DNA of 56,945 nucleotides, taken from Nitrososphaeria archaeon (GTDB lineage Archaea; Thermoproteota; Nitrososphaeria; JACIWG01). The notes under the pieces are model-generated. The model worked only from the letters and a program-made list of their open reading frames with translations. It made no database searches and had not been told where the DNA came from. Every line of letters starts with the position of its first letter. Within the stretch, counting starts at the first letter, position 1. Made by a program: the position numbers and the translations under genes. This document shows positions 15,306-39,481 of the stretch, in pieces. The stretch spans positions 1-56,945 of the forward strand of contig JARVJS010000014.1 of the NCBI GenBank assembly GCA_029776125.1, given 5' to 3'.

Positions 15306-15431
15306 AAGTGTTATTGGGAAACGTGCAATAGTTCCTAAGTGGATCTTAATGTCTTGCTGTATTTTGGCTATATCAACTTAGAATTGGAAAAGTTGACTAG
15401 GCTCAAAGAAAGTAGTGGAAGTAGTATTAAG

Positions 15432-15516
15432 TGCGGGGGGTGGGATTTGAACCCACGAACGCCTACGCGACAGGGTTCTGAGCCCTGCGCCTTTGACCTG
15501 GCTTGGCAACCCCCGC
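15432..15516 (-). tRNA. tRNA-Leu (anticodon CAG)
   Basis: Folded by hand on the minus strand. Acceptor GCGGGGG/CCCCCGC, D arm GCC-AAGCCAGGTCAAA-GGC, anticodon arm CAGGG-CTCAGAA-CCCTG, a 14-nt variable arm, T arm GTGGG-TTCAAAT-CCCAC, discriminator A. Total 85 nt. Confidence 0.9.
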
Positions 15517-16400: not shown

Positions 16401-16499
16401 GCCGGGGTGCCTGAGCGGTCAAAAGGGCCGGCCTCGAGATCTTTCAAGAAAGCCGGTAACGGCCTGTCCGTTGCAAGGGTTCAAATCCCTTCCCCGGCG
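16401..16499 (+). tRNA. tRNA-Ser (anticodon CGA) with a ~12-nt intron at the canonical 37/38 position; integration target of the adjacent element
   Basis: Hand fold. Acceptor GCCGGGG/CCCCGGC, D arm CCT-GAGCGGTCAAA-AGG, anticodon stem CCGGC/GCCGG with loop CTCGAG[ATCTTTCAAGAA]A. An 18-nt variable arm has an AACGG/CCGTT stem. T arm AAGGG-TTCAAAT-CCCTT, discriminator G. Total 99 nt, about 87 nt once spliced. Confidence 0.85.
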
Positions 16500-16500
16500 T
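16485..16500 (+). repeat. attL core (ATCCCTTCCCCGGCGT), part of the tRNA-Ser T arm and acceptor
   Basis: Identical 16-mer at 39466-39481. Confidence 0.7.
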
Positions 16501-16554: not shown

Positions 16555-17730
16555 GTGATGGCTGACATACACTCTTACGCTAGAAGGGTTGCTGCAGTCG
16601 AAGGCCGGCTTCTTGGATCAAACGGGGAGACTGCAGGATCTTTTCTGAAACACCTTCGCGCGAGAGGCTTAACTGACGCCAGACTACACTTTTACGCTAC
16701 AAGACTGTCCAAGATCCTCTGCTTCCTTGACCGCAAAAATCTTAGGCTCCAGGACATTGGAAGAAAGGATGCTGAAGAGTTTCTGGCATGGGTTCTTTCT
16801 CAGCCGTTTAAGGCGTGGACGAAGCACGCTTACGTTCTAGCGTTCAAGAAGCTTGTCTCGTACGCTAAAACAGGCGATTCTGACAACGCTCCCCCTGAAG
16901 TTGCATGGATCAGGCCTCATGCATATTCTAGGGAGGCTGACAAGGAGTCCCGTGCAAGGCCTGAAGCGTTGCTTACAGAAGAGGAGATATTGAAGATCAT
17001 TTCATGCGCTAGGAACTTGAGGGACAGGGCCATGCTCTGGGTTCACTTTGAAGGCGCGCTTAGGCCTGGAGAGCTTCTCACGATGAAGGTTTCGAGTGTA
17101 GAGTTCAGGGACCAATATTGTCTCGTAAGCGTCCACGGCAAAACTGGCTTAAAGCGTCTCCCGCTGGTCATAAGCTTCAGGCCGCTCCTCGACTGGCTCA
17201 ACGTTCACCCGCTAAAAGACGATCCAAGCGCACCACTTTGGGCCAGCCTCTCCCGCTCACGCCATGGAGCCGGCGTCGGATACCAGTATTTCAGGAACAC
17301 GGTTAAAAGGTGCGCTGAAGAAGCCGGCCTAAAGAAGACTGTTTGGCCTTACCTGTTCAGGCACACGCAGCTCACGAGGCTCGCGAAAAAGCTTACCGAA
17401 GCCAAGCTTGCACTGTATGCTGGATGGGTTCAGGGATCCAACATGGCTAAAAAGTATGTTCACTTCAGCGCCAGAGACCTCGAGGAAACGGTTCTAGAAA
17501 TTAATGGGCTCAAGAAGCCTGAAGAAGAGCATTTGAAGCTCCAGCCTAGAATGTGCCCAAGATGCGGCGTCCAAAACAGTCCAGACACTGTAAGATGCTC
17601 ACGATGCGGCCTAGTCCTCGACCACCCGCAGGCAGTCGAAGAGGCTGCAAGAGAGCAGGAGGAGATCGAGTCAATAAAAAGGGAGCTGGAGGAGGTCAAG
17701 GACACCCTCAAACGCATCCTCCAACCCTAA
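16555..17730 (+). CDS. int: Tyrosine recombinase/integrase (XerC/D-like) with C-terminal zinc-ribbon extension
   Basis: 391 aa. N-terminal SAM-like core-binding region, then catalytic-domain blocks GALRPGELLTMK (Arg), LFRHTQLTRL (His-x-x-Arg) and KKYVHFS (Tyr). The tail carries MCPRCGVQNSPDTVRCSRCG. The gene is adjacent to the tRNA att site. Confidence 0.85.
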   Translation: MMADIHSYARRVAAVEGRLLGSNGETAGSFLKHLRARGLTDARLHFYATRLSKILCFLDRKNLRLQDIGRKDAEEFLAWVLSQPFKAWTKHAYVLAFKKLVSYAKTGDSDNAPPEVAWIRPHAYSREADKESRARPEALLTEEEILKIISCARNLRDRAMLWVHFEGALRPGELLTMKVSSVEFRDQYCLVSVHGKTGLKRLPLVISFRPLLDWLNVHPLKDDPSAPLWASLSRSRHGAGVGYQYFRNTVKRCAEEAGLKKTVWPYLFRHTQLTRLAKKLTEAKLALYAGWVQGSNMAKKYVHFSARDLEETVLEINGLKKPEEEHLKLQPRMCPRCGVQNSPDTVRCSRCGLVLDHPQAVEEAAREQEEIESIKRELEEVKDTLKRILQP

Positions 17731-17939
17731 ACCCTCTTTTCAAGCCTCGAAAGACGCTCCTCAATCAACTCGATCCTCCGAACAAGGCTCTCGAGAACAC
17801 TTTTCCGCACAAGAACATGCTCTCCATCCATCAACCAAACCAAAAAGAAAAGCTTAAAAAGAAAAAAGGGGAAACAGCATCCAAAAAACTTAAGCACCTG
17901 CTTAACTTGACAAAAGCATGAAGTGACATTTTGTTGCAA
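17727..17939 (-). CDS. Small hypothetical protein; only the C-terminal ~35 aa coiled-coil part looks credible (ATG at 17831)
   Basis: The sequence from the internal ATG, MDGEHVLVRKSVLESLVRRIELIEERLSRLEKRV, looks helical. The upstream part overlaps repeat DNA. Support is weak. Confidence 0.2.
   Translation of the reverse strand: MQQNVTSCFCQVKQVLKFFGCCFPFFLFKLFFLVWLMDGEHVLVRKSVLESLVRRIELIEERLSRLEKRV
17888..17908 (+). repeat. 21-bp direct repeat copy 1 (ACTTAAGCACCTGCTTAACTT), containing palindrome TTAAGCA-CC-TGCTTAA
   Basis: Exact second copy at 18016-18036. Confidence 0.85.
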
Positions 17940-17982
17940 ACACGACGACTCCAGAATCGACGTAAATGCAACAAAATGTCAC
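17923..17982. repeat. 60-bp hairpin-forming palindrome, copy 1
   Basis: The outer arms are 16-bp perfect complements: GTGACATTTTGTTGCA ... TGCAACAAAATGTCAC. The inner arms are imperfect and carry ACGACGA/TCGACGT. Confidence 0.85.
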
Positions 17983-18015
17983 CTCATGTTATCCTGTACG
18001 CTGGACTGTCAGCAG

Positions 18016-18036
18016 ACTTAAGCACCTGCTTAACTT
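18016..18036 (+). repeat. 21-bp direct repeat copy 2 (ACTTAAGCACCTGCTTAACTT)
   Basis: Exact copy of 17888-17908. Confidence 0.85.
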
Positions 18037-18060
18037 AACCAAAAAAACATTTAACATGAG

Positions 18061-18120
18061 GTAACATTTTGTTGCAAATGCGACGATTCTAGAGTCGTCG
18101 TAAATGCAACAAAATGTTAC
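18061..18120. repeat. 60-bp hairpin-forming palindrome, copy 2
   Basis: GTAACATTTTGTTGCA ... TGCAACAAAATGTTAC. Relative to copy 1, G to A in the left arm is matched by C to T in the right arm, so the symmetry is preserved. Confidence 0.85.
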
Positions 18121-18176
18121 TTCATGGCATGCTTACATTTTTCCTGCTGGGGATAATGTATTCTGTTAAGTTTGCG

Positions 18177-19928
18177 TCAACCTCTTCTGCAGCGTCCCAG
18201 AAACTGTTCCGTGTCCAAGAAGGCTACATTTTCGTCGACTTCTATAATATCGTGGCCTTTGCATAGAAGCCGATGCTCTTTAGCCGCCTTCGGATCCCTC
18301 CATGGGCCGGCTCCGCATGTTATACACCGGAGGAGCCTGGACTCTTCTACAGAATTCTTCTCCCGCTGCTCCCCCGCCTCTGTAACGCTTGTAACATTTG
18401 TAACACTTTTTCCACTCTGTACGCATCCTGCAACAAGATCTGCTGCACCAACATTGTCTGTAACACTTGTAACGCTTGTAACACTTGATTCCTCTGTAGG
18501 CTCATAGTCTGGAACAAACTCCATGAACCTTGTCCTAAGCCTGCCCTCGTCAAACCATATTGGCCTATAAACGCGGTCGATTCTAACAAGCTTAGGAAGC
18601 TGCTCCTGCCTCGGGTGAAACTGCAGAGAATTTATCACGTTCCTAACCTCTCTCGTGGACCATCTTATCTGCTCAGCCAAGTCTGAAGTCTGTAAGGGAA
18701 CAAAAAGATCTTCATTAGTTTTAGGATGCTTTATTTTGTTTTTTGCAAAATATTTTATTCCATTATGTTCTCCCATCAAGTTTTCACGCCAAAATTCATA
18801 GAGTGTGTTGATTATGATGCCGTCTTTTGACATGGCCTTAACTTCTCTCCTCCTCTTCTCCAGAACCTTCAGGATGTCCACAATGTTTGACGCAAAAGAT
18901 GGCTCAATTTTGCCTATCGCCAGCAGAGGCAAGACTGCAGCCGTAAGCCTGTGGTCCCTTATCCCCGGCACCCTTGCACCCTTGTCTATTACAACCTGAT
19001 CCCAGTACCTTAGCCTCAGGTAAAGAAGTTTAGCCTGAAGGTCAAGGCCCTTCTTGATCCAGTCGTCCAGCTCCTCGGTTGGAATCGCCTTCTGGCTTTT
19101 TTCGCAGTAGAAGGGTATCGTGCGATCTTCCAGCGCATTATCCTCCCAAACCCTCCTCTGCGTTATGATTGTGAGGCCAAAATTGTGGAAAACCTCATTA
19201 TATTTTGGGCTGTCAGGATTCTGCCTCGAGATTGGGACACCATAGCATCTGCAGTTCAGGTAATGGGTCAGCTCCGAAGTTTCACCCGTGTTAACGAAGT
19301 CCATTTCGCTCAAGCATAGTGTTCCACGCCACTGGTCAAGAGGCCGATAAAGTGAAGGAACCCTTCTCGTGCTCACGTCATAGAATGGCCTGTAACAGTT
19401 TAGTCTCAGGGCGTTGAGAAGCCTGTCTTTGCCGGAGCCCGAGGGCCCTCTCAAGGCTATTATTGGAGCGAAGGCACCCATTCCCGGAACAATCACGTTA
19501 AATTTGTCCAGGAACCAGCTGCTCTGGGCTACAGCCACCAGAAACTTTACCTCGTCAACCCTGTCAGCTTCACAGTCGTACATGCTGAGAGCCAGCTCGC
19601 ATCCTTCTTGAAAGACTTCACTGAAAGAGGATTCCTTTACCTCTTCAGGCAATAGGACCAGGCCCTTCTTAAGCGAAGGATTGTTTAGAGGCCGGTAAAC
19701 CACACGCTTTAAATCGTCTTTCAGCTCACTTTGAAGTTGGATCAGGATGCTTTTGGCCTGAAGATATCTGACCTCATAAAATGATGTCTCCTCTCTCCGC
19801 CTGTAAACCTGTTCCGCGACAGCGTAGCCTTCTATAACAGGGCTGGGAGAATATATGATGCTCGTGTCTGGAGTGTCGTCCTCGTCCTCCACGCTTTTGC
19901 CGGAAAAAGAGGATGTGGAGCTGCTCAT
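18177..19928 (-). CDS. P-loop NTPase, candidate SF3-like replicative helicase of the element
   Basis: 583 aa. Walker A RGPSGSGKD, Walker B-like TLCLSEMDF, then LTIITQRR (a possible motif C). The C-terminal Cys/His cluster is CITCG...CKGH. This is the last and largest gene of a tightly overlapping five-gene minus-strand operon. The function is inferred. Confidence 0.5.
   Translation of the reverse strand: MSSSTSSFSGKSVEDEDDTPDTSIIYSPSPVIEGYAVAEQVYRRREETSFYEVRYLQAKSILIQLQSELKDDLKRVVYRPLNNPSLKKGLVLLPEEVKESSFSEVFQEGCELALSMYDCEADRVDEVKFLVAVAQSSWFLDKFNVIVPGMGAFAPIIALRGPSGSGKDRLLNALRLNCYRPFYDVSTRRVPSLYRPLDQWRGTLCLSEMDFVNTGETSELTHYLNCRCYGVPISRQNPDSPKYNEVFHNFGLTIITQRRVWEDNALEDRTIPFYCEKSQKAIPTEELDDWIKKGLDLQAKLLYLRLRYWDQVVIDKGARVPGIRDHRLTAAVLPLLAIGKIEPSFASNIVDILKVLEKRRREVKAMSKDGIIINTLYEFWRENLMGEHNGIKYFAKNKIKHPKTNEDLFVPLQTSDLAEQIRWSTREVRNVINSLQFHPRQEQLPKLVRIDRVYRPIWFDEGRLRTRFMEFVPDYEPTEESSVTSVTSVTDNVGAADLVAGCVQSGKSVTNVTSVTEAGEQREKNSVEESRLLRCITCGAGPWRDPKAAKEHRLLCKGHDIIEVDENVAFLDTEQFLGRCRRG
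18381..18407 (+). repeat. Iteron triplet A (3 x 9 bp TGTAACRYT) inside the 3-prime part of the NTPase gene
   Basis: Sequence TGTAACGCTTGTAACATTTGTAACACT, read directly. Confidence 0.8.
18459..18485 (+). repeat. Iteron triplet B (3 x 9 bp TGTAACRYT) inside the 3-prime part of the NTPase gene
   Basis: Sequence TGTAACACTTGTAACGCTTGTAACACT. It encodes the SVTSVTSVT peptide on the minus strand. Confidence 0.8.
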
Positions 19929-19932
19929 CGGA

Positions 19933-20166
19933 TCACCTCCCTTTCAGCCGATACAAGATGATGAGGAAGACTGTTGCAGCATTTCTCCCGCAGAGGTCAC
20001 ATTCTCCCGGCCCCCATGCTGCGAGAGCATCGTATCCGAGAACCTTTTCCCTCAAGCATCTTCTGCAGACTGCTAAAGAGGTTTTGTCCAAAAAATGGGT
20101 TGGGGGGACAGTCATTGAACCACCTCCATCTTCTCGCAGACTTTCCTGTGAGCCCAGAGCGCGCAC
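19933..20166 (-). CDS. Small zinc-ribbon protein (hypothetical)
   Basis: Contains CRRC...CDLCG. A likely internal ATG gives MTVPPTHF (60 aa). The stop lies 4 nt before the NTPase start. Confidence 0.4.
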   Translation of the reverse strand: MRALGSQESLREDGGGSMTVPPTHFLDKTSLAVCRRCLREKVLGYDALAAWGPGECDLCGRNAATVFLIILYRLKGR

Positions 20167-20435
20167 CCGTAAACCTGCTTGAACCTGTCCCCTCGGACTA
20201 CCGTGAAAGAGTATTCGACGCCGTCGTCAACCACCTCCGTCCTGAAGTCGCCGATGTAGTTCATCATCCAGTACACCTTCAGCCTCTCGTGAAGCCAATA
20301 GTATATTCTGTAGGTTTCCGGAGAAGGCGGCGGAAGCTTGAACACGATCCTATCCCCGCGCCTGAACATGAAGCCTTCACTTTCCACCATTCTCCTCCGC
20401 CTCCAGACAGAGTTTCTCGCGCCTGAACAGTTCAA
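20112..20435 (-). CDS. Hypothetical protein (operon member)
   Basis: 107-aa frame overlapping its neighbours in an operon-like chain. A likely start is at MVESEGFMF. No motif recognised. Confidence 0.35.
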   Translation of the reverse strand: MNCSGARNSVWRRRRMVESEGFMFRRGDRIVFKLPPPSPETYRIYYWLHERLKVYWMMNYIGDFRTEVVDDGVEYSFTVVRGDRFKQVYGCALWAHRKVCEKMEVVQ

Positions 20436-20664
20436 ACAGGGCCTTCAGCATCCCGTTGGACAACTGAACCTGGTTCTCCAGCATGGAGGTCGAAGAAATC
20501 TTCAGAGAGTGAACTAGGCCGCGCTCATCCTGTTCCACGTCAACGTGGTAGTAAATGATGCCGTCGCCGAACTCGCATGGGATTTCAACAGCATAGGAGA
20601 CTGTTACAGTCCCAGTTTTCCGCACAATCGCCTGCCTCCCCCTACACTCCATCCTCCACTTCAC
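20377..20664 (-). CDS. Hypothetical protein (operon member)
   Basis: 95-aa frame. An internal ATG (MECRGRQ) overlaps the stop of the upstream gene in a coupled arrangement. No motif recognised. Confidence 0.35.
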   Translation of the reverse strand: MKWRMECRGRQAIVRKTGTVTVSYAVEIPCEFGDGIIYYHVDVEQDERGLVHSLKISSTSMLENQVQLSNGMLKALFELFRREKLCLEAEENGGK

Positions 20665-20833
20665 CTCTCACGGGAACAATGAGGATGCTGCCGTCATCGT
20701 AGAAAACGTATTCGACCAAGCGCCCATGTCCCAGCTTCTGCCACCTGACCCAGTCGCTTGGAGCAGCCATCACGTATTCCACGTCCCCCTTCCTTCGAAT
20801 CCTATACACTTTTCTCCTGATGACCTGAGCCAC
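20642..20833 (-). CDS. AbrB/SpoVT (MazE-like) swapped-hairpin DNA-binding protein, first gene of the replication operon
   Basis: RKVYRIRRKGDVEYVMAAPSDWVRWQKLGHGRLVEYVFYDDGSILIVP resembles the AbrB-type looped-hinge pattern. The ORF-track frame extends to 20962, but that N-terminal part is hydrophobic and low-complexity. I therefore prefer the GTG at 20833. Confidence 0.4.
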   Translation of the reverse strand: MAQVIRRKVYRIRRKGDVEYVMAAPSDWVRWQKLGHGRLVEYVFYDDGSILIVPVRGEVEDGV

Positions 20834-20998
20834 GCAGATCACCTGACAAAAGAAGAATACAGCCTTAAAAAGGAATGGAAGAATTCTACCGAAAACATTA
20901 TCCCGGCCGGAAAATGTAAGCCACCCTCTCTCGGGAAAAGCCTGCCCCCACAAGCATGCCACAAGCCCAACCCTTCTCCTTCTCCTTCCCTTCTCCCC

Positions 20999-21191
20999 TA
21001 AACGGGCGTCGCCTAAACGGGCTTCGCCCGTTTAATCATGCAAGAATGCGAAGCATTGTTGCAGCATACAGAGTGGAAAAAGTGTTACAAGCGTTACAAG
21101 CGTTACAGCCTAAACAGGCGAAGCCTGTTTAATCTAAACAGACTTCGTCCGTTTAATCTTATATCATGCAAGAATACGGAGTATTGTTGCA
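20999..21191. other. Highly structured intergenic region, candidate replication origin or master operator of the element
   Basis: Three 21-bp palindromes TAAACNGNC-nnn-GNCNGTTTA lie at 21014-21034, 21111-21131 and 21135-21155, with a half-site at 20999-21013. Two 25-nt hairpins TGCAAGAAT..ATTGTTGCA lie at 21039-21063 and 21167-21191 and show a compensatory base-pair change. An inverted iteron triplet lies at 21081-21107. Confidence 0.6.
21081..21107 (-). repeat. Iteron triplet C (reverse complement of 3 x TGTAACRCT)
   Basis: AGTGTTACAAGCGTTACAAGCGTTACA is the inverted counterpart of the triplets at 18381 and 18459. Confidence 0.8.
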
Positions 21192-21266
21192 GCAGGATCC
21201 GAAGGATGCTGCAGCAGAGGACTAGAGGATAAGGGGATGGGAGGCGGGGGTTTGGGCTTGTTTTGG

Positions 21267-21650
21267 TCACCGGTTTCTGAAGGTTATGCGGGCTGGGAGG
21301 CTGCTGGCGTCAAATTCTGTGGTAAGAATCTTTTTCCAGGCCAGGTTGCAGTAGAAGACCATGATCCTGCAGCCGCGTGCGCGGGCGTAGGAGACTTCTG
21401 CGCCGACCTCCTCGAGGCAGCATAAGCCGTATTCTTTCAAAAAAAGCTTTTTTAGGCCAATAGAACATTTTGGGCCAAGGGTTCTGGAGAGGACACTGTC
21501 CACTGAAGATGCGACAGCCTCCCTGAAAGACTGCAGCCCAAGGGAACTCTTTTCTCTAAAACCAACATTGTGTGCGGACAGAATATTTATGGAAACAAAA
21601 TTTTCTTCCCAACCCCCCTCCAACTCAAGCACATGCTTAGTATACGACAA
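21267..21650 (-). CDS. Hypothetical protein (uncertain gene)
   Basis: 127-aa frame with a TTG start. The 5-prime end overlaps an AAGCACATGCTT palindrome. No motif recognised, and GC-rich DNA generates many chance frames. Confidence 0.25.
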   Translation of the reverse strand: MSYTKHVLELEGGWEENFVSINILSAHNVGFREKSSLGLQSFREAVASSVDSVLSRTLGPKCSIGLKKLFLKEYGLCCLEEVGAEVSYARARGCRIMVFYCNLAWKKILTTEFDASSLPARITFRNR

Positions 21651-21693
21651 AAATTTTTAAATAAAAGCCCATACATTATTTACTTGAACAAAG

Positions 21694-22242
21694 TTGGCCG
21701 CTAAAATTCCAAGCGGTTTCACCCTAGTCGAGGGGGAGCGTCCATACTATTATGCAAGACTAAGCTGGAAAGCGAACTGGCTTCTCATACTCTTGGGGAT
21801 TCTGACGATCTGGGTCTTCGGCTTCGGCCTAATCTTCTTCATCATAGCCTTCCTGAGGGTTAAGGCTACAGAATATTTTATAACAAGCCACAGAATGTAC
21901 ACAAAATACGGTCTAATAGGAAGAAGGGTTTTCGAGATAAAAAACGAGTGGATCACGGGCGTGATGGTTAGACAGGGGTTCATCAGCAGAATACTCAACT
22001 ACGGCGACATCGTCTACAGCACGCCCGGCCAATACGCTGGCTCCGTCGCAATGATAGGCGTATCGGACCCAATGCACGTTAGAACAATAGTCGAAGACAT
22101 CCTGAACAAGTTCAAAGAAAGGCAGAAGCTGCAGGAAGAGCTGAAGGCTGTCGAAAGAGAATACGAGTTCGGAAGAATATCGAAGGAAAAGTATGAGGAG
22201 CTGAAGAAAAAGTACGAGGAAAAGATTAGGATCCTAGGCTAA
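21694..22242 (+). CDS. Membrane protein with bacterial PH (bPH_2/YdbT-like) domain and C-terminal SHOCT domain
   Basis: 182 aa. Two TM helices (NWLLILLGILTIWVFGFGLIFFIIAFL) are followed by YFITSHRMYTKYGLIGRRVFEIKNEWITGVMVRQGFISRILNYGDI (bPH_2 pattern). The tail EREYEFGRISKEKYEELKKKYEEKI is SHOCT-like. Confidence 0.6.
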   Translation: MAAKIPSGFTLVEGERPYYYARLSWKANWLLILLGILTIWVFGFGLIFFIIAFLRVKATEYFITSHRMYTKYGLIGRRVFEIKNEWITGVMVRQGFISRILNYGDIVYSTPGQYAGSVAMIGVSDPMHVRTIVEDILNKFKERQKLQEELKAVEREYEFGRISKEKYEELKKKYEEKIRILG

Positions 22243-23417: not shown

Positions 23418-25610
23418 TTAAACGCCTTTCTTCCGCATCCCTTTATGGACAACTGCTGCACACACTATGGCAAGTAAAGCTATCGCTATAACAGTGCCCG
23501 TTAACCATATTGTAGCAGATTCCGGCTGCCCAGTTGAAGTGGTTGAGGTTGTTAAGGTGGTGGTTGTTGGCTGAGAAGTTGTTGTCGGAGAAGGAGGGGT
23601 TGTAGTGGTTAAGGTTGTGGTTGTTGGCGCTTGGACTGTTACAGTTTTCTGGCTTAAGCCTACGTTTCCTGCAGCATCTCTGACCTTCAATGTCACCAGA
23701 TATGTTCCAGGATTCTTGTAGGTGTAGGTAAAGGTTTTCTCGAACACTATTGTGCCGTCTCCAAGGTTCCACTCGTAGCCTACTACAGCGAAGTTGTCGC
23801 TTGCAACAGCATCGAATATGATAGTTTCACCAACTCTTATAGTCTGGTCTGGGCCTGCGTCAGCCAAAGGCTTAGTCATATCCAATATGATTGACGCTTC
23901 ATATGTTTGTGAAACGAGGCCTGCCCTATCCTTAAACTGCACATACACTGTTTTAGGTCCATCGCCAGCATCCAAAGTCCAAGGCATTGGAGAAGAAAAT
24001 GGCCGCCAACTGCTCCAAACACGTTCATCGTTGCTTAAACGCACTTCCGCTACACCAGACAAATTATCGTACCCTAACAGAATGAGATTCACTAAAGTGC
24101 TGTTCGTGTACTTTGAACCTTCATTTATGGCAACGGAGCCTGTGGGAGGAGACAAATCCAACTTTATTCCCTTCAAAAAGTGATGTTCTTCCTCGTTTCC
24201 AGCATAGTCGACACTCCAATATTCTAGAGTATTGTTGAAACCCTCGTCACTAATCCAAGGCTGTCCGTCTGCACCAACACTGCGAACAGGCCCACCATTA
24301 ACTCGATAGAAGGTTTCAGCTACGCCGCTTAAATCGTCTGAGGCAGTCAAGTTTATAGAAAAATAGCTTGTGTGCCAAAGGCCATCGTAGTCGTCGACTG
24401 TAACGGGAGGCATACTGTCTCCAACTTCAAGAACCTTAACGTTAGCTGTCGTACTATTTTTGAACCCGAACTCGTCAACAACTGTTAGAGTCACACTATA
24501 GTCGCCGGACACAGTATAACTGTGCACGACTTTCGGAGACAATGTAGTAGTAACGTTACCGTCACCGAAATCCCAAACATACTTGACAATAGAACTGTAT
24601 AGGCCAAAACTTGCTGACCCGTCAAAAGCCACCTTCTTGCCCACGGAAACCATGGACGGCGAATACGAGAATTTAACAATTAAAGGAAGTGTGGGCGTGT
24701 CAGGGTGAGGCTCAACTAGAATCGGCAAATACTCGATAAAGCCTGCGCAGGTTATGTCATCCTTCTTATCGTAAATCATTGAATCAATAACAGCTGTGTC
24801 ATTGGTTCCCCAATAATTTTCAGTCGCAATCATAGCCGCTTCACGAATTCCTGGATACAATTTCAAAACTGTTCCACTCACACCGATAAATGAATTATAT
24901 TTAACAACTGTTTTTCCCACATAACTTGCCCAATTTTCTACGACAAAACCCCTGTTTCCTTTGAAGAGATTATACCTTATGTAAACGTTGCGACCGCCGC
25001 TTCCAACAGAAAAGCCAGCCGAGTTTATAAAAATATTATATTCCACATAGACATCTCTCATAGGATACCACACATATGAGAAGTCTTTCAAGTTAATTAG
25101 TTCACAATATTTTATGCTAAAGGAACCATATGTGGAGTAACCCGTCGCAGGCCAAAGACTTAATCCGTCCCTAATGATGCAGTAACTTAGATTCAAAAAC
25201 GATGATTCGCCAGAACTTTTGGGGCTAAAAAAATTAGAAACTCCTCCGCCGTCAAAAACTATTTTATTAGCAGGCGTCCCATGAGCCTCAATTCTCCCAT
25301 GCAATAGAAACATGTCAGGTGGGCTGCGGCTGACGACCGTCACACCCGGTTCAATGGTAAGAGTCACATTCTCCGGTATCTGCACGGTCTCAACTACAAT
25401 ATACGGACTATTCTCCAGCGTCCACACAGTATCCTTCCAGATTATCCCGCCGACAGTCGTACCCGAGCCGCTGGAGCCCACGGCCTCCACCCCACCAAAA
25501 ACTGTCCCAGAAACAGGAAAACATGAAAATAGGACAACAATAGCCAGAATCCCCAAAAAACTCTTGCACACTCTGAACATCATATCACATAAGCCTCTGC
25601 GGAAAAACAA
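23418..25610 (-). CDS. Secreted, membrane-anchored surface protein with right-handed beta-helix region, two PKD domains and Ig-like domains
   Basis: 730 aa. Signal-like N-terminus (likely start MMFRVCKSFLGILAIVVLF). Repetitive beta-helix segment. PKD signatures WDFGDGN...HSYTVSGDYSVTLTVVDEFG and WNLGDGT...YTYKNPGTYLVTLKVRDAAGN. DxLSGV Ig-like modules, a Thr/Pro-rich stalk, and a C-terminal TM helix plus a basic tail. Confidence 0.7.
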   Translation of the reverse strand: MFFRRGLCDMMFRVCKSFLGILAIVVLFSCFPVSGTVFGGVEAVGSSGSGTTVGGIIWKDTVWTLENSPYIVVETVQIPENVTLTIEPGVTVVSRSPPDMFLLHGRIEAHGTPANKIVFDGGGVSNFFSPKSSGESSFLNLSYCIIRDGLSLWPATGYSTYGSFSIKYCELINLKDFSYVWYPMRDVYVEYNIFINSAGFSVGSGGRNVYIRYNLFKGNRGFVVENWASYVGKTVVKYNSFIGVSGTVLKLYPGIREAAMIATENYWGTNDTAVIDSMIYDKKDDITCAGFIEYLPILVEPHPDTPTLPLIVKFSYSPSMVSVGKKVAFDGSASFGLYSSIVKYVWDFGDGNVTTTLSPKVVHSYTVSGDYSVTLTVVDEFGFKNSTTANVKVLEVGDSMPPVTVDDYDGLWHTSYFSINLTASDDLSGVAETFYRVNGGPVRSVGADGQPWISDEGFNNTLEYWSVDYAGNEEEHHFLKGIKLDLSPPTGSVAINEGSKYTNSTLVNLILLGYDNLSGVAEVRLSNDERVWSSWRPFSSPMPWTLDAGDGPKTVYVQFKDRAGLVSQTYEASIILDMTKPLADAGPDQTIRVGETIIFDAVASDNFAVVGYEWNLGDGTIVFEKTFTYTYKNPGTYLVTLKVRDAAGNVGLSQKTVTVQAPTTTTLTTTTPPSPTTTSQPTTTTLTTSTTSTGQPESATIWLTGTVIAIALLAIVCAAVVHKGMRKKGV

Positions 25611-27176: not shown

Positions 27177-28187
27177 ATGCCTTCTGGATCCTTGAAGATG
27201 CTGGAAGACTATCTGGAGGATATAGTGTTAAACAGTCTACCGTACACTGTCGCGAAACTGAAGGAGAACCCGACTGTCAGCGAACCGGAAGCAAAAAATG
27301 TTGTCGGCAAAGTCTGCGAACTCAAGACACTGCTGGCCCTGTACACGATCCTATCGGAAATCATGCCAGAAGACGGCATACTCTACATAGAATACAACAG
27401 CCAATATAATAGGAGAAAATGGAGGCTCAAAGAGAAGCCCAACGACGAAGGCGCAGACATCCAGATCGCGTCAAAAAATGTTCTAGTAGAAGTTGAGGTC
27501 AAGCACCGCCTCAGCGGCTACACGACAGAAAAAGAGTTCACCGAAAAAATTCTGCCAAAATATCATCCGCGCGCCAAAAAAATCCTTGTACTCTACACCG
27601 GCTACACGGAGCAAGAAAAAGAGAACCTCAGAAGACTCTGCAACAGACACGACGTCACCCTGATCGTGGACAAGCCAATCGAATACAGGAAACGCGAGGG
27701 CGCCTACGAATTCAACCCAGCAAGCTTAAGCATGCAGGCCGCCAACCTCGCAACCGTGGCAACAAAACTATCCTACCACCTAAAAAAACACCTAACCACC
27801 GCCACAGCAACAAAACAACCATCTTCTTCTTCCTATACAATACATAGTAATCTATACTATACAATGGACTATAGTAAAACGGATTACAGTAGAACATTCT
27901 ATAACAGCAGCGTTGACCATATAATGTTTGATTGGGTGATGTTTGATTGTATTATGTTTGATGATATGATGTTCTGTTCTGATGCAATGTTGTGTTCTGG
28001 TATAATGTCATGTTCTAGTGTCATGTCCTATGCTGGCATCATGTTGTCGACTGTTCCATGGGACACCCTGTCCCCAGACGGTATAATGTATTATGCTAGC
28101 ATAAAATGTTATGGGGCGAGAATGTTGGAGGAAACTGGTGCCTGCGGAGGCTGCAAAAAAACCGATTTTTTTGACATAATATTATAA
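27177..28187 (+). CDS. Hypothetical protein with PD-(D/E)xK nuclease-like core and an unusual Met/Cys-rich periodic C-terminal tail
   Basis: 336 aa. GADIQIASKNVLVEVEVKH fits D-x(n)-E-x-K. From about residue 245 the sequence becomes 5-6-residue periods starting with Met (MFDWV MFDCI MFDDM MFCSDA MLCSGI MSCSSV MSYAGI). It is unclear whether the tail is translated. Confidence 0.35.
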   Translation: MPSGSLKMLEDYLEDIVLNSLPYTVAKLKENPTVSEPEAKNVVGKVCELKTLLALYTILSEIMPEDGILYIEYNSQYNRRKWRLKEKPNDEGADIQIASKNVLVEVEVKHRLSGYTTEKEFTEKILPKYHPRAKKILVLYTGYTEQEKENLRRLCNRHDVTLIVDKPIEYRKREGAYEFNPASLSMQAANLATVATKLSYHLKKHLTTATATKQPSSSSYTIHSNLYYTMDYSKTDYSRTFYNSSVDHIMFDWVMFDCIMFDDMMFCSDAMLCSGIMSCSSVMSYAGIMLSTVPWDTLSPDGIMYYASIKCYGARMLEETGACGGCKKTDFFDIIL

Positions 28188-32717: not shown

Positions 32718-34199
32718 TCAGACAACATTGTCCTTGACTAGAAAAGTTTTCCCGCAGAAGGGGCATCTTACAACAAGATCCTCCTTAAACTTAAGCAGCC
32801 TCTCGAGCTCCGCAACCCTTGCCCTTAGAACATCAATTTCTTTTCTAGCGTAAGCCAAGTCCGTTTCCACGGAAACAGTGTCACGTGCAGCCTCCCTAGC
32901 CTTCCTTATCTCCCACAGCGCATCATCCAAGCTCATGACGTTAACAAGCTCAACAATCCTACGCTTCTCCTCCTCACTAAAGTCTCCCTTAACAAATTCT
33001 TCGGCGAGACGGAACGCTATACCTCTTCTGGAGGGAATGAGGCCGTTGAAGATGAAACCGTGTTTGGCGTTAAGTTCATCAAACTTCCTGCTCATGAACT
33101 CTTCTGCAGCCTTAAGCGCCTGCTTCGGATCAATGCCGCGGTACACTTGATCAACAACCATCTTGGTCTCGCTGCTGGTAAGCCCCTTTTCCCTGACAGC
33201 GTATGCGATCTCCTTAACAGCATCAGGCTTATCCTTTATCTTAAGAAGCTCCTCCGCATGCGATGGGGTGAGGAAGCCCCTGGGCTTGGAGACAGAAGCC
33301 CCCTTATCCAGCCCACCTTCTCTGACACCGTCTACGGCAACAAAATTGTGCCCTGGGGCACAATTTCCCGCTCCAGTCTCCTGCAACGGTACAGAATTTA
33401 GGTTAACCAAATTGTGCGGTAACGCACAATTTTCCGCCCTAGTCTGTCCAAAGTAGTCTCCAACAGAATTTTGCGCTGGCGCAAAATTTCCTGCTCCAGC
33501 ATCATGCGATGGCACAGGATTTAGGTTAACCAAATTTTGCCGTACGGCAAAATTTTCTGCCCTAACCTGCTCCAAACCATCTCCGTCAGCCTTCCTCCTG
33601 TCAATCTCCCTCTGAAGCCTCCTCTCGAAGTCTTCTTCAAGCATTTTCTGCACCTCCTCCGGAAGGTCAAGAAACTGTATCCTGCGGACAACGTAGCTGC
33701 AGTCTTTCCCAATCTTGTTGGCGAGGTCGGTGACCGAACCCCAGCCGAACTCTTCAACATACCTTTTGAAGGCTCTAGCCTCTTCCATTGGACTAAGCTG
33801 CTTACGCTGAACATTTTCAACCAACGCTATCTCGAAAGCGTCCCTGTCATCCAGTCCATCGTGTACAATACACAGCGCCTCTTCCACGCCAAGCGTCTTC
33901 AACGCATTATATCTTCTCCATCCGCAGACAAGCTCGTACCCGCTTCCAGCCTTCCTGACAGTAAGCGGGTTAAGAAGCCCCTTCCTTCGAATACTTTCAG
34001 CAAGCTCGTCTATCCTGCCAAGAGATGACCTCAAAAGAAACCTTGGAGCACTGATTTCCGAAAGCCTAAGATATCTGATCTGAGATGAAACAGCCTTCTG
34101 CATACAGCATCCTCCAAAAAAGGTGGAAAAGACTCCGTCACCATTCCCGCATACTGTTGGGAAAGTAGAAGGCGACAGCCAGAACAAGGCATACTCCAA
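32718..34199 (-). CDS. ParB/Srx-domain protein with HTH, an internal 41-aa tandem repeat, coiled coil and C-terminal zinc-ribbon-like end
   Basis: ParB N-terminal blocks are LRLSEISAPRF, GLLNPLTVRKAGSGYELVCGWRRYNALKTLG and ALVENVQRKQLSPMEEA. HTH: LANKIGKDCSYVVRRIQFLDLPEEVQ. The C-terminal end has RCPFCGKTF. The likely start is the ATG at 34103 (MQKAVSS). Confidence 0.7.
   Translation of the reverse strand: MEYALFWLSPSTFPTVCGNGDGVFSTFFGGCCMQKAVSSQIRYLRLSEISAPRFLLRSSLGRIDELAESIRRKGLLNPLTVRKAGSGYELVCGWRRYNALKTLGVEEALCIVHDGLDDRDAFEIALVENVQRKQLSPMEEARAFKRYVEEFGWGSVTDLANKIGKDCSYVVRRIQFLDLPEEVQKMLEEDFERRLQREIDRRKADGDGLEQVRAENFAVRQNLVNLNPVPSHDAGAGNFAPAQNSVGDYFGQTRAENCALPHNLVNLNSVPLQETGAGNCAPGHNFVAVDGVREGGLDKGASVSKPRGFLTPSHAEELLKIKDKPDAVKEIAYAVREKGLTSSETKMVVDQVYRGIDPKQALKAAEEFMSRKFDELNAKHGFIFNGLIPSRRGIAFRLAEEFVKGDFSEEEKRRIVELVNVMSLDDALWEIRKAREAARDTVSVETDLAYARKEIDVLRARVAELERLLKFKEDLVVRCPFCGKTFLVKDNVV
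33343..33555. repeat. Four 22-24-bp palindromes in a ~123-bp tandem duplication inside the ParB-like ORF (candidate parS-like centromere)
   Basis: P1 33343-33366 AAATTGTGCCC-TG-GGGCACAATTT. P2 33409-33432 AAATTGTGCG-GTAA-CGCACAATTT. P3 33467-33488 AATTTTGCGC-TG-GCGCAAAATT. P4 33532-33555 AAATTTTGCCGTACGGCAAAATTT. A TTAGGTTAACCAAAT spacer precedes P2 and P4. Confidence 0.9.
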
Positions 34200-34593: not shown

Positions 34594-37080
34594 ATGAGTC
34601 CAACACCATCAAAAAAGTTGAATAAGGTCGTTGGAACGCTAGAAGTGTTTATACTTCTTCTGCCAATTTTTGCTGGAGCATCTTCTCTTACACCAGTAGG
34701 CTATGCGAAGGCCATGTCTTACGTTAACCAGGACATTTTAGTGGACACTGTGTGGGACAAAAGTGGAAGCCCATATATTATACAGAAGAGTATCATGGTA
34801 GCAGAAGGTGCCACGTTGAAGATTGAGCCGGGCGTGGAAGTCGATGTCATCGAAAAGTCTACGATAACAGTGTACGGTAAAATTGTTGCAGGATCTGTTG
34901 GAGGAGAAGCTGTTAACGTTAAAGGCTGGGGTAAGCCTGGAACATTCTCTGTCCAAGTCAAAGGCGGAAATCTTCACATAGAAAATGCTGTGATAGAAAA
35001 TGTTCTTATGACGTTAGAGGATGCTGACGTGAAACTTTCTAGGCTGAAGACAGGGTCTTTTACGATAGACGTGTTCAACAGGTCCATGTTGGCAGCCGCG
35101 GGACTTGAAGCCGAAAGCCTGAAAGTCGGTGGAGGAAAATGTGGTATAGCATACTCTATCCTGTCCATAGAAAATTCGGAGGTCAAGTCAATCGAGGTTT
35201 CAGGATACGCTGGAGTTTACTGTTCGACTGTTAGACTGTCGGATGTCCAGAGCCAGACGATGAAAGTGGCTGGAAAGCCGCCATACTGGGTAGGCGGTGT
35301 GATGGGAGTCGACGTCTACAATTCCACAGTGTACTTTAACATGGTTTATGCTGGCAAAGTCGACATGAGCGGATATGGCGGCTTCAGGCACTCTTTCATA
35401 AAATTCGATGGCGGTAGGGTGGGAGACATTATCATGCCGCTTGACGTCTACAATTCTACTGTAGAAGTCTATTCTGTGGAAGCGGATACAGTAAACTTCT
35501 GTCCCGGTACGATGGTGCGTTCGAAAACCTTTTTCGAGAACGTTGTCGCGAACAAGATAATGTTCAACGGAAGCAAGTACTGGGGTGAAATCGCTTCCAA
35601 TTCGAACATTACATTCAACCGCATCGTGTGCAGGACATTGGCTGTTTCAGGCATGTCGGGAGACAGTGGAATCGACGTGAGAAACAGTACTATAAAGATT
35701 GTTGGGTCCACAGTCGCATACGGTTCAGGAGTGTACGTCAGGTGCCTCACGAACTCGGTTCTGGAAATAAGTGGATCAAACGTTTACGGAAACAGTCCAT
35801 ACGGCCTCTATGTTGGATCATCGTCTGGCATGATTATAGGCAAAAATCCTGTCGTTAAAGTGGACGGAAACTGGTGGGGTGACGCTAGCGGACCAACCAA
35901 TCCAAAACTTAATCCGGGCGGAAAAGGCGACACCATCATAGTTCCAGACAATACTACAATATCCAAGTGGCTTACTTCTCCAGCGGGAGGAGCTGTGATG
36001 CCAAGGTCTAGGCTTGAGCCAGCGAATCCTGTTATAGCAAGAGGAAGTCCAGCATCTTTTATGGTAGCAGCTGAAGGAAGCAGGATAGCCGCATGCTTCA
36101 TGGACTTCGGAGACGGTTCTGTGTCAGGCTGGACACGTGACCTGCCAGTAGTCCACGTGTATAATGCGGTTGGAGAATATCTGGTTACAGCGTACACGGT
36201 GCACGAGAACATGCTTTTAACTAAAGCATCTGCTTTGGTCAGGGTGGCGTCACCTCCTTCCGTTAAAATAGTGTCTCCTGCAAACGGTACACTATTAAAA
36301 GATAACATGGTGAAAGTGGATGTTAACGTAGAGGATCCGGTTGGGATAATATTGTGCCAGATTAAAGTGGACGATTTTACTAGAACCGTGAAACCGAATA
36401 CTACAAGATACGCTGGAACAGTCTCTTTGGGTCCTATAGCGGACGGGTGGCATCTTGTCGAGGTCAATGCTACAAACGTGTTTGGGCTATCATCTTTGGA
36501 TAACGTTGTTGTCGGAACAGACACTATCACCCCATGTATAGAAATAGAAGCTCCTCCAGCAACAAGCGGAACCTTCACTTTGAAATGGAATATAACAGAC
36601 AATTTTAGCGGCGTGAACCCTGACAGCGTCAGAATATCGTGTGGAAGAATATATTTTCCACGTGCGGTCGTCGGAAGCATTAACCTCACAATTGATGCCA
36701 CAACAAACATTATAGTTTATGCTGCAGACTATGCTGGAAACACTATTGAAGCAAACTTTACGATAAAGTATGTTGGAAAAACTTCTACAGCTACTGCAAC
36801 AGCCTCTCAGACTGAAACTTCTTCTTCCACTGAACCGTGTTCCAGCGAATCTTCTACTATACCATCGTATCATGGGCAGGAAGGCGAATACGATTGGATA
36901 AACTATGTTGTACCCTTCGTTATCCTGGCAGCAGTTGTAGCTGCGGTCGCGTTAGCTGTCGTCTATAGGTTCAGGAGAAAGAGGGAGGTTGCCGAAATTA
37001 AGGCGATTGAAGGTGAAACCGTGGAAGGCGGGCAGGCTGGAGCAGGCGGGGCAGGGGGCGGAGGAAATGAAGCTGTTTGA
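34594..37080 (+). CDS. Secreted, membrane-anchored surface protein with beta-helix repeats, PKD domain and Ig-like domains
   Basis: 828 aa. Signal-like N-terminus (VFILLLPIFAGASS), a long repetitive beta-helix-like region, and the PKD signature FMDFGDGSVSGW...VHVYNAVGEYLVTAYTV. Also a DNFSGV Ig-like module, a Ser/Thr-rich stalk, a C-terminal TM helix (VVPFVILAAVVAAVALAVVY) and a basic/Gly-rich tail. Confidence 0.7.
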   Translation: MSPTPSKKLNKVVGTLEVFILLLPIFAGASSLTPVGYAKAMSYVNQDILVDTVWDKSGSPYIIQKSIMVAEGATLKIEPGVEVDVIEKSTITVYGKIVAGSVGGEAVNVKGWGKPGTFSVQVKGGNLHIENAVIENVLMTLEDADVKLSRLKTGSFTIDVFNRSMLAAAGLEAESLKVGGGKCGIAYSILSIENSEVKSIEVSGYAGVYCSTVRLSDVQSQTMKVAGKPPYWVGGVMGVDVYNSTVYFNMVYAGKVDMSGYGGFRHSFIKFDGGRVGDIIMPLDVYNSTVEVYSVEADTVNFCPGTMVRSKTFFENVVANKIMFNGSKYWGEIASNSNITFNRIVCRTLAVSGMSGDSGIDVRNSTIKIVGSTVAYGSGVYVRCLTNSVLEISGSNVYGNSPYGLYVGSSSGMIIGKNPVVKVDGNWWGDASGPTNPKLNPGGKGDTIIVPDNTTISKWLTSPAGGAVMPRSRLEPANPVIARGSPASFMVAAEGSRIAACFMDFGDGSVSGWTRDLPVVHVYNAVGEYLVTAYTVHENMLLTKASALVRVASPPSVKIVSPANGTLLKDNMVKVDVNVEDPVGIILCQIKVDDFTRTVKPNTTRYAGTVSLGPIADGWHLVEVNATNVFGLSSLDNVVVGTDTITPCIEIEAPPATSGTFTLKWNITDNFSGVNPDSVRISCGRIYFPRAVVGSINLTIDATTNIIVYAADYAGNTIEANFTIKYVGKTSTATATASQTETSSSTEPCSSESSTIPSYHGQEGEYDWINYVVPFVILAAVVAAVALAVVYRFRRKREVAEIKAIEGETVEGGQAGAGGAGGGGNEAV

Positions 37081-39465: not shown

Positions 39466-39481
39466 ATCCCTTCCCCGGCGT
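39466..39481 (+). repeat. attR core (ATCCCTTCCCCGGCGT), displaced tRNA-Ser 3-prime fragment
   Basis: Identical 16-mer at 16485-16500. Host-like AT-rich core genes resume downstream. Confidence 0.7.

Follow-up and report, generated by a model that had tools for sequence, protein, structure and literature searches.

The stretch of DNA analyzed here, referred to as the window, is the 56,945-nucleotide (nt) contig JARVJS010000014.1 of a Nitrososphaeria archaeon (GenBank assembly GCA_029776125.1). It carries a 23-kb integrated element, and within this element lies a non-coding stretch of ~300 bp, which we call the block. To the left of the block, a minus-strand operon comprises four small genes followed by the gene (rep) for a P-loop ATPase of 583 amino acids (aa). 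To the right, the next credible plus-strand gene encodes a bPH_2 membrane protein (21694-22242), and a doubtful open reading frame (ORF) of 57 aa is found at 21252-21425. A 58-aa ORF called by the gene finder at 20956-21132 was judged by inspection to be spurious, as it runs across the palindromes of the block and would encode an implausible-looking peptide. The likely TATA box of the operon, located by eye, is at 20866-20873, and the block lies ~210 nt upstream of it. An earlier note, made from the sequence alone, had read the block as a candidate replication origin of the element.

Palindromes, hairpins and iterons of the block

The block contains the following features.

20961-20998, no strand: left flank; a 20-nt inverted repeat has its left arm here (ACAAGCCCAACCCTTCTCCT, 20961-20980, 80% complementary to 21242-21261), and a polypyrimidine tract comes next
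20999-21013: half-site TAAACGGGCGTCGCC
21014-21034: palindrome 1, TAAACGGGC-TTC-GCCCGTTTA
21039-21063, no strand: hairpin 1, TGCAAGAATGC-GAA-GCATTGTTGCA; the stem of 11 bp includes a G.G mismatch and is closed by a C-GAA-G triloop
21055-21108, plus strand: upstream copy of a ~55-nt inverted repeat (TTGTTGCAG..TACAGAGTGGAAAAAGT and three iterons), with its partner in the helicase gene at 18381-18445
21081-21107, minus strand: iteron triplet TGTAACGCT TGTAACGCT TGTAACACT (operon coding strand), the 'forward' array of the helicase family described below
21111-21131: palindrome 2, GAA centre
21135-21155: palindrome 3, TTC centre
21167-21191: hairpin 2, GGA loop
21192-21212: hairpin 3, GCAGGATCC-GAA-GGATGCTGC, from the hairpin scan and additional to the earlier note
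21242-21261: right-hand arm of the inverted repeat that encloses the block, AGGCGGGGGTTTGGGCTTGT; a polypurine tract comes before it

The flanking inverted repeat together with the polypyrimidine and polypurine tracts sets the extent of the block at ~20961-21261. The left flank has a guanine-cytosine (GC) skew of −0.9 and a CCTTCT repeat. The GC content within the block varies from 0.375 to 0.45, compared to ~0.47-0.50 for the element.

The three 21-bp palindromes and the half-site that had been described earlier are present. The pattern TAAACNGNC-nnn-GNCNGTTTA was matched three times, against 0.00 matches expected from 100 shuffles, and is absent elsewhere in the window. The two 25-nt hairpins are equally real, with 2 matches against 0 expected from shuffles and no other copy in the window, and they differ by the compensatory G:C to A:T exchange that the earlier note pointed out; the mid-stem G.G mismatch is identical in both. 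Similar paired changes are found among the palindromes. At stem position 6 the first palindrome has G:C and the second A:T; at position 8 the first two have G:C and the third A:T. Palindrome 3 has a single A.C mismatch. Palindromes 2 and 3 can jointly form a single stem of 21 bp.

Each of the six stems closes with a C-GNA-G triloop, four of them on the top and two on the bottom strand. Hairpin 1 and the first two palindromes contain the heptamer GCGAAGC on one or the other strand; this sequence is known as an unusually stable DNA mini-hairpin, which we take as a lead and not a test. As single-stranded DNA the plus strand was predicted to fold with −50.8 kcal/mol (shuffled sequences −26.8 ± 3.1 kcal/mol, z = −7.75), and the z-score for the minus strand was −5.46. 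Folding as RNA gave z-scores of −6.07 and −5.81 for the two strands. A hairpin scan of the 57-kb window identified the block as its densest spot, with 14 matches per 250 nt and at most 4 in non-overlapping windows.

The order of the elements, which had been described as symmetric, is not a mirror image. Palindrome 1 with hairpin 1 and palindrome 3 with hairpin 2 are direct repeats of one unit of 56-63 nt, and these two copies flank the iterons. A virus-borne mini-CRISPR array, for which near-identical repeats of ~24-37 nt with spacers of ~30-45 nt served as yardstick, was considered and rejected: the two 32-nt repeats found here are 91% identical and 128 nt apart, with the iterons and two palindromes between them. 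Rfam covariance models gave no match in the block, either at the gathering threshold or at E ≤ 1.

The central triplet of the 9-bp iteron is also present as noted earlier, and Tandem Repeats Finder provided independent support by detecting an array with a period of 9 and 3.1 copies. The triplet reads AGYGTTACA on the plus and TGTAACRCT on the minus strand. The window contains 8 copies of TGTAACRCT, compared to 0.63 expected, and five of these are exact copies inside the ATPase gene.

The replication helicase and its intragenic iterons

The ATPase gene and the two iteron arrays within it are as follows.

18177-19928, minus strand: putative replication helicase of 583 aa, with a predicted N-terminal beta-barrel, a P-loop AAA+ core, a winged helix, a linker (residues 481-528) and a small C-terminal domain with four cysteines
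18381-18407, minus strand: intragenic triplet 2, AGTGTTACA AATGTTACA AGCGTTACA (coding strand), encoding SVTNVTSVT, residues 508-516
18459-18485, minus strand: intragenic triplet 1, AGTGTTACA AGCGTTACA AGTGTTACA, encoding SVTSVTSVT, residues 482-490

The five exact 9-mers lie within these two triplets. Searches of Pfam, PHROGs, NCBIfam and PDB sequences with the ATPase returned nothing useful, and the protein was classified by fold search only. An AlphaFold model built from 33 sequences had a predicted local distance difference test score (pLDDT) of 84 and a predicted template modeling score of 0.76. Foldseek matched it to MCM, SCCmec Cch (5dgk), the helicase region of the NrS-1 primase-polymerase, PriRep1 (7pds), vaccinia D5, papillomavirus E1, SV40 large T antigen and AAV Rep, with E-values of ~2e-7 to 3e-4. 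Judged from the model, the ATPase is a self-loading replicative initiator helicase with an MCM/SF3-like fold. The protein has no primase domain and no primase was identified in the element.

A large protein collection contained at least 119 relatives from uncultivated archaea (Thermofilum, Thaumarchaeota/Nitrososphaerota, Bathyarchaeia, Nezhaarchaeales and Hadesarchaea). Sixteen of the 119 homologues listed are longer and have N-terminal Prim-Pol and/or PriCT_1 domains. A scan of genome contigs added further relatives in Odinarchaeia and in some distant bacteria; an initial scan of genome contigs with the single ATPase protein gave nothing, as did scans of viral contigs, and annotated plasmid and phage collections gave zero matches.

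Iteron arrays of this kind lie within the last ~300 nt of related helicase genes (L004, L007-L011, L013-L017 and L020-L024). In at least 13 relatives, from distant archaea, two triplets with 9-bp period and mutually inverted orientation are found 28-213 nt apart, just after an EFVPDY motif. With the extended unit GTNACRS, the first array in the relatives is always forward and the second always reverse. At the protein level the arrays appear as "VTxVTxVT ... SVTSVTSVT", which is kept in the otherwise hypervariable linker that follows EFVPDY. The core of the iteron varies by lineage and the two arrays stay complementary, with GTTAC/GTAAC, GTCAC/GTGAC, ATTAC/GTAAT and GGAAC/GTTCC as observed pairs. 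In L008, which has the GGAAC/GTTCC pair, the encoded peptides VEQMEQVEQ and VPDVPHVP are unrelated and the DNA inverted repeat is retained. When synonymous codons were resampled with the peptide and the codon usage of the gene held fixed, the complementarity was significant at P ≤ 0.04 in 10 of 12 loci and at P < 0.01 in 9.

The core changing in step between the two arrays indicates a constraint at the DNA level. By this comparison the 'conserved' SVTSVTSVT peptide is a by-product of that constraint, and the TGTAACRCT iteron belongs to the helicase family. An RNA stem as explanation for the inverted arrays was thought less likely, as each arm is itself a triplet with 9-bp period. In the window both intragenic arrays are co-oriented and therefore cannot pair as an RNA stem. 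We found no paper on this peptide or DNA motif in the helicase family, which is weak evidence given the limits of the literature search; origin-like inverted iterons in the linker codons of an uncharacterized archaeal helicase family appear to be undescribed so far.

The arrays in the window differ from this pattern in orientation. Both fall in residues 481-528, which the model shows as its single long disordered segment, and triplets 1 and 2 share the reverse orientation, unlike those in every relative examined. The sole forward array of the window is the triplet in the intergenic block. An alignment of ~55 nt connects the block array to intragenic array 2 with one gap of 4 nt, and the aligned ~28-nt flank includes the 3' arm of hairpin 1. 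Judged from this alignment, the intergenic array is an inverted copy of intragenic array 2 plus flank. With a forward array in the block and reverse arrays in the gene, inverted arrays bracket the whole 2.6-kb operon.

A sister element and the wider setting

A related element, L050, was found on contig JAVZRR010000036.1 (1-5600) of assembly GCA_038880515.1. The same assembly contains an identical copy of the replication region of the window (L002) on a 5.7-kb contig, with proteins labelled "Thermoproteota archaeon". Since L002 is identical over the aligned block, it is uninformative on conservation. The comparison with L050 involves three further features of the window.

19933-20833, minus strand: four small operon genes upstream of the helicase gene, encoding 63, 91, 92 and 60 aa
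20895-20919, minus strand: promoter-proximal conserved motif TTACATTTTCCGGCCGGGATAATGT, within 20659-20921, which is 91% identical to L050
17888-18126, no strand: two copies of a 28-nt repeat, each followed by a 72-nt near-perfect palindrome (17917-17988 and 18055-18126)

The 63-, 92- and 60-aa genes are common to both elements, with 83-97% identity between the shared small proteins, depending on the measure. For the first small operon protein a single close relative was found, which is in L050 and 83-88% identical, again depending on the measure; the region of 91% identity comprises its gene and the promoter-proximal sequence. The two further small genes are 96% identical in L050. L050 also retains the non-coding region downstream of rep and a 336-aa gene (86% identical at the DNA level). 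Its helicase is different from that of the window, being a 906-aa Prim-Pol and MCM protein.

L050 has no TAAAC palindromes, no TGCAAGAAT hairpins and no GTTACA iterons. The corresponding position in L050, ~255-280 nt upstream of the first gene, is taken by a different 9-bp x3 array (CTGCCTTGA) with a hairpin behind it. This iteron-hairpin unit recurs in inverted orientation over 75 nt, ~97% identical, beyond the helicase gene and one further gene. These arrangements point to inverted units of iteron triplet plus hairpin that bracket the replication operon as a backbone design shared by the two elements, and to an iteron sequence that goes with the helicase and not with the conserved small proteins. 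Because the iterons change with the helicase and not with the small proteins, the latter are unlikely to bind the block. The presence in one assembly of two related elements with swapped helicases and iterons would fit avoidance of incompatibility.

L050 lacks the 91-aa gene (20377-20652) just as it lacks the palindromes and hairpins, and being element-specific in the same way this gene is a candidate to encode a binder of those sites. Its protein matched only itself among 5.8 billion proteins. The first operon gene had been called AbrB-like in the earlier note, a label that Pfam, PDB and fold searches did not confirm: the protein had no Pfam match even at E ≤ 10, and its six PDB sequence matches (best E = 0.4) included none that was AbrB-like. 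Its model, with a pLDDT of 70.6, shows a compatible strand-strand-helix-strand-strand order, and Foldseek returned no significant match.

The 72-nt palindromes have arms of 35-36 nt. The stop codons of the integrase and helicase genes enclose them, and the intragenic iterons are ~250 nt away. The region 17888-18170 is kept at 79-92% identity in L050 despite the different helicase. Rfam searches of the palindrome region gave chance microRNA-type matches only. These palindromes could be a pRN1-like stem-loop origin, a site for a host factor, or RNA.

Several smaller features were recorded in the two elements. An inverted-repeat motif, TTACATTTT(T)CC-N4-6-GGGATAATGT, occurs in the window at 20895-20919 (minus strand) and 18133-18159 (plus strand) and in L050 at 220-246 and 464-488. 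One copy is upstream of the operon promoter and one just past the helicase stop codon, directed back into the gene. It may be an operator for the conserved small proteins or the promoter of an antisense transcript. In L050 the downstream inverted repeat is followed by a copy of the promoter-like sequence TTTTTAAGGCTG, and an assembly gap shows as a run of N at 5128-5227. A perfect palindrome, AAAAAAGCTTTTTT, is present in the window at 21440-21453, after the doubtful ORF at 21252-21425, and could serve as a T-run terminator in both directions or as a small AT-rich site for duplex opening.

The boundaries of the integrated element are marked by two attachment repeats.

16485-16500, plus strand: left attachment repeat ATCCCTTCCCCGGCGT, 16 nt, at the 3' end of a tRNA gene
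39466-39481: right attachment repeat ATCCCTTCCCCGGCGT, the second copy of the 16-nt direct repeat

Together with a tyrosine integrase gene at 16555-17730, these repeats identify an integrated mobile element of ~23 kb. Two tRNA genes are located at the left edge of the island (16401-16499 and 15431-15516). The tRNA gene at the attachment site was found by Rfam and overlooked by ARAGORN; its length of 99 nt suggests that it carries an intron. The window matches contig JAVZPO010000001.1 of assembly GCA_038881555.1. The island has a GC content of ~47%, far above the ~30% of the host genome, which suggests recent arrival of the element from a different host lineage.

Elsewhere in the element, a ParB-like protein with ParB_N and HTH_ParB domains is encoded at 32718-34199. 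Its gene contains a 123-nt tandem duplication (33338-33576; 1.9 copies, 81% identical) encoding a repeated NFA..QN..VNLN segment between the ParB helix-turn-helix domain and the C-terminal region. In the 336-aa gene, 15-nt and 18-nt tandem repeats at the 3' end (27924-28030) encode MFDW/MFDC/MFDD-type repeats. Large secreted or membrane-anchored proteins of 730 and 828 aa are encoded at 23418-25610 and 34594-37080; judged from the translations they are beta-helix/PKD-like with C-terminal anchors, an unusual cargo for a small integrated replicon.

Role of the block and comparison with known systems

On this evidence we consider it probable that the block serves the replicon as a helicase-specific cis site, whatever its precise role. 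Our preferred reading gives it the narrower role of the origin, or of an indispensable half of an origin that is split, and for this we see even chances. The proposal of the earlier note that the block is the replication origin is supported in part: the block is tied to the replication helicase of the element, and it may be the origin or a partner or control site.

In the mechanism we favor, the self-loading MCM/SF3-like helicase would bind the three 9-bp iterons at 21081-21107, probably via its winged-helix or C-terminal region. The palindromes that flank the iterons would extrude or fold when the duplex is strained or opened, closing on very stable C-GNA-G triloops, and the folded stems would offer single-strand/duplex junctions for loading of the helicase and for priming. 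The block array would be the 'forward' partner of the two 'reverse' intragenic arrays 2.6 kb away, and the two loci would act together, either as origin and partner site or as origin and copy-control site. The sequence features, the helicase fold, the covariation of the iterons in the helicase family and their swap together with the helicase in L050 are observed; helicase-iteron binding, hairpin extrusion and initiation at the block are steps that we infer.

A number of observations weigh against placing the origin in the block. The block has one iteron triplet only, and a distinct AT-rich unwinding stretch was not found inside it, the nearest being at 21420-21459 and 21640-21679. A cumulative GC-skew inflection, which the earlier note had suggested as a check, is missing at the scale of the element near 21 kb; the skew declines from ~17 kb to a minimum at ~34-35 kb and then climbs. 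It tracks gene orientation, and we rejected it as an origin marker for that reason. The sign change at 21.0 kb is local because of the flanking pyrimidine and purine tracts. The earlier note had named a lack of conservation in related elements as a refutation, and by that test the block fails. At the 16 related helicase loci no third or extragenic iteron array, palindrome or hairpin block was found in the DNA compared. It is the intragenic array pair that is conserved instead, which makes that pair the family-wide candidate origin; by this comparison the block itself is lineage-specific. A search of metagenome contigs with the hairpin pattern gave 13 matches, all in unrelated contexts and lacking both the stem and the palindromes, and a viral contig collection gave zero matches to the palindrome pattern. 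Analogous systems with experimentally tested origins also direct attention downstream of the helicase gene. The origin iterons of SaPI and SCCmec elements lie just downstream of the helicase gene (PMC7581432). In pRN1 the origin is a stem-loop of ~100 nt downstream of rep that is needed in cis, and upstream a 64-bp promoter region suffices (PMC4234260). By analogy with pRN1 and SaPI/SCCmec, the 72-nt palindromes would be an equally good origin candidate.

Several of these points would favor a different division of roles, in which the origin is at the 3' end of rep, formed by the intragenic triplets and the 72-nt palindromes, and the block has a regulatory or copy-control function as its partner. 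The block array would then bind the same helicase and act by looping or handcuffing with the origin, as a site of operon repression like P1 incA and F incC, or as an auxiliary site like P4 crr. The conservation of arrays inside the helicase gene throughout the family, the downstream origins of pRN1, SaPI and SCCmec, the short distance between the 72-nt palindromes and the intragenic iterons, and the bracketing of the operon by inverted iteron units in both the window and L050 all agree with this. On the other hand, the 72-nt palindromes are common to elements with different helicases and thus are not helicase-specific, and no long stem-loop was found downstream of rep at the related helicase loci. 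The intragenic arrays of the window are co-oriented, so that a convergent pair exists only when the block array is counted, and ~210 nt upstream of a TATA box located by eye is far for a simple operator. We regard this explanation, the main rival, as possible, with a probability well below one half.

A bolder variant of the origin reading concerns the whole helicase family. The uncharacterized archaeal helicase family, which is widespread (Bathyarchaeia, Thaumarchaeota, Thermofilum, Odinarchaeia and others), would keep the origin in its own gene as convergent triplets in the codons of the disordered linker. In the element described here the forward triplet would have moved 2.6 kb upstream, creating a split origin that is joined by helicase-mediated looping, and L050 would have the same split layout. 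We put this scheme forward tentatively, as perhaps one chance among several.

The palindromes and hairpins might alternatively be transcription-factor operators for divergent promoters, bound by the 91-aa or another small operon protein, with the iteron triplet an incidental coding duplicate that has no role in replication. Palindromic 21-mers are typical of dimer binding sites, each palindrome ends in a TATA-like GTTTAATC, and CTTATATC is present at 21158-21165. The 91-aa gene is present in the window and missing from L050, as are the palindromes, and pRN1 also has a small repressor gene before rep on the same transcript. However, the absence of the palindromes from L050 means that the small proteins shared with that element cannot be their binders. 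The paired stem changes suit hairpin formation better than protein contacts, every centre is a C-GNA-G triloop, and the different triplet that L050 has in the corresponding place speaks against duplication by accident. We consider the operator explanation unlikely.

A partition site, or centromere-like site, for the ParB-like protein is a still weaker candidate that we regard as very improbable. Centromeres are often clusters of short palindromes, and a ParB-like gene also adjoins the helicase gene in L004. However, the parB-like gene of the element is ~11.5 kb away from the block, no ParA was found, and L004 encodes its ParB-like protein without having TAAAC palindromes; we know of no parS site that the palindrome resembles. 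That the block is transcribed into a structured RNA without coding function, such as an antisense or copy-control RNA, seems the least credible option: the strong predicted folds (z = −6.1 and −5.8) and compensatory changes agree with it, but both strands fold equally well, as expected for DNA palindromes, the loops face both strands, no Rfam family matched even at E ≤ 1, and no homologous RNA was found in the metagenome and viral contig scans.

Experiments have defined only a handful of replication origins in archaeal plasmids, viruses and integrated elements, and to our knowledge none of them is from these uncultivated lineages. If the helicase-iteron reading is correct, TGTAACRCT and the helicase form a testable pair, and two inverted triplets with 9-bp period after EFVPDY provide a rule to predict the cis site in more than 100 related elements. 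The two co-resident elements would represent a natural specificity swap that is usable for the study of incompatibility and origin recognition. For annotation, the case gives reason for caution, as a "conserved peptide motif" such as SVTSVTSVT can reflect a constraint on the DNA and not a feature of the protein.

The system resembles several known replicons in part. It has in common with pRN1 a small gene co-transcribed with a helicase-type rep, stem-loop DNA, and a structural match of the helicase to PriRep1 (7pds). In pRN1 the stem-loop is single and no iterons are defined, whereas the block has several hairpins of 21-25 nt that surround iterons and lie upstream; the nearest counterpart of the pRN1 stem-loop in the element is formed by the 72-nt palindromes at 17917-18126, outside the block. 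A combination of hairpins and iterons is described for oriV of RSF1010, where about three iterons lie beside hairpin-forming inverted repeats, ssiA and ssiB, that act as priming signals on opposite strands (PMC8567376). RSF1010 differs in having separate RepA, RepB' and RepC proteins and two hairpins of 40 nt.

In phage lambda the origin iterons are inside the coding sequence of the initiator gene O (PMC6022878). The lambda parallel holds for the intragenic arrays and not for the block, and it is limited by O not being a helicase and by the use of four 19-bp direct repeats. The iterons of O lie in an inter-domain linker. In satellite phage P4 an SF3-type primase-helicase initiator binds the same short repeats at ori and crr, which are several kb apart and both needed in cis. 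The P4 repeats are octamers in a bacterial host, and no hairpin cluster is known to us there.

For SCCmec Cch2, three 5-nt iterons suffice for binding, which occurs via the C-terminal domain (PMC7581432). The SaPI and SCCmec systems share with the element a self-loading initiator helicase of hexameric type, and Cch (5dgk) was among the structural matches. The intragenic arrays at 18381-18485 agree with a position of iterons at the 3' end of the helicase gene and the upstream block does not. The SaPI and SCCmec iterons are intergenic, downstream and in bacterial hosts, whereas here arrays are found in coding sequence with an extra array upstream of the operon. Tandem triplets that form an inverted pair at the 3' end of the gene of a self-loading helicase would nevertheless fit these known origins.

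Direct iterons upstream of rep mark the origin in plasmids of the P1, F and pSC101 type. In P1 and F the origin iterons are upstream of rep and control iterons downstream. The element is similar in having tandem short repeats for an adjacent initiator, arrays on both sides of rep, and a repeat specificity that shifts with the initiator; such repeats act as incompatibility determinants. It differs from P1 and F by an AAA+ initiator of the hexameric-helicase type in place of the winged-helix RepA and RepE proteins, by triplets with 9-bp period of which one partner array is inside the rep coding sequence, by its archaeal host, and by lacking DnaA boxes and a clear AT-rich region. Of the properties of an iteron-type origin, the block thus has at least three tandem repeats, an adjacent gene for a cognate protein with helicase fold, and a repeat that changes with the initiator, and it lacks an AT-rich unwinding element. 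Compared in this way, the block would be an iteron-type site for a self-loading helicase, a variant of a known principle.

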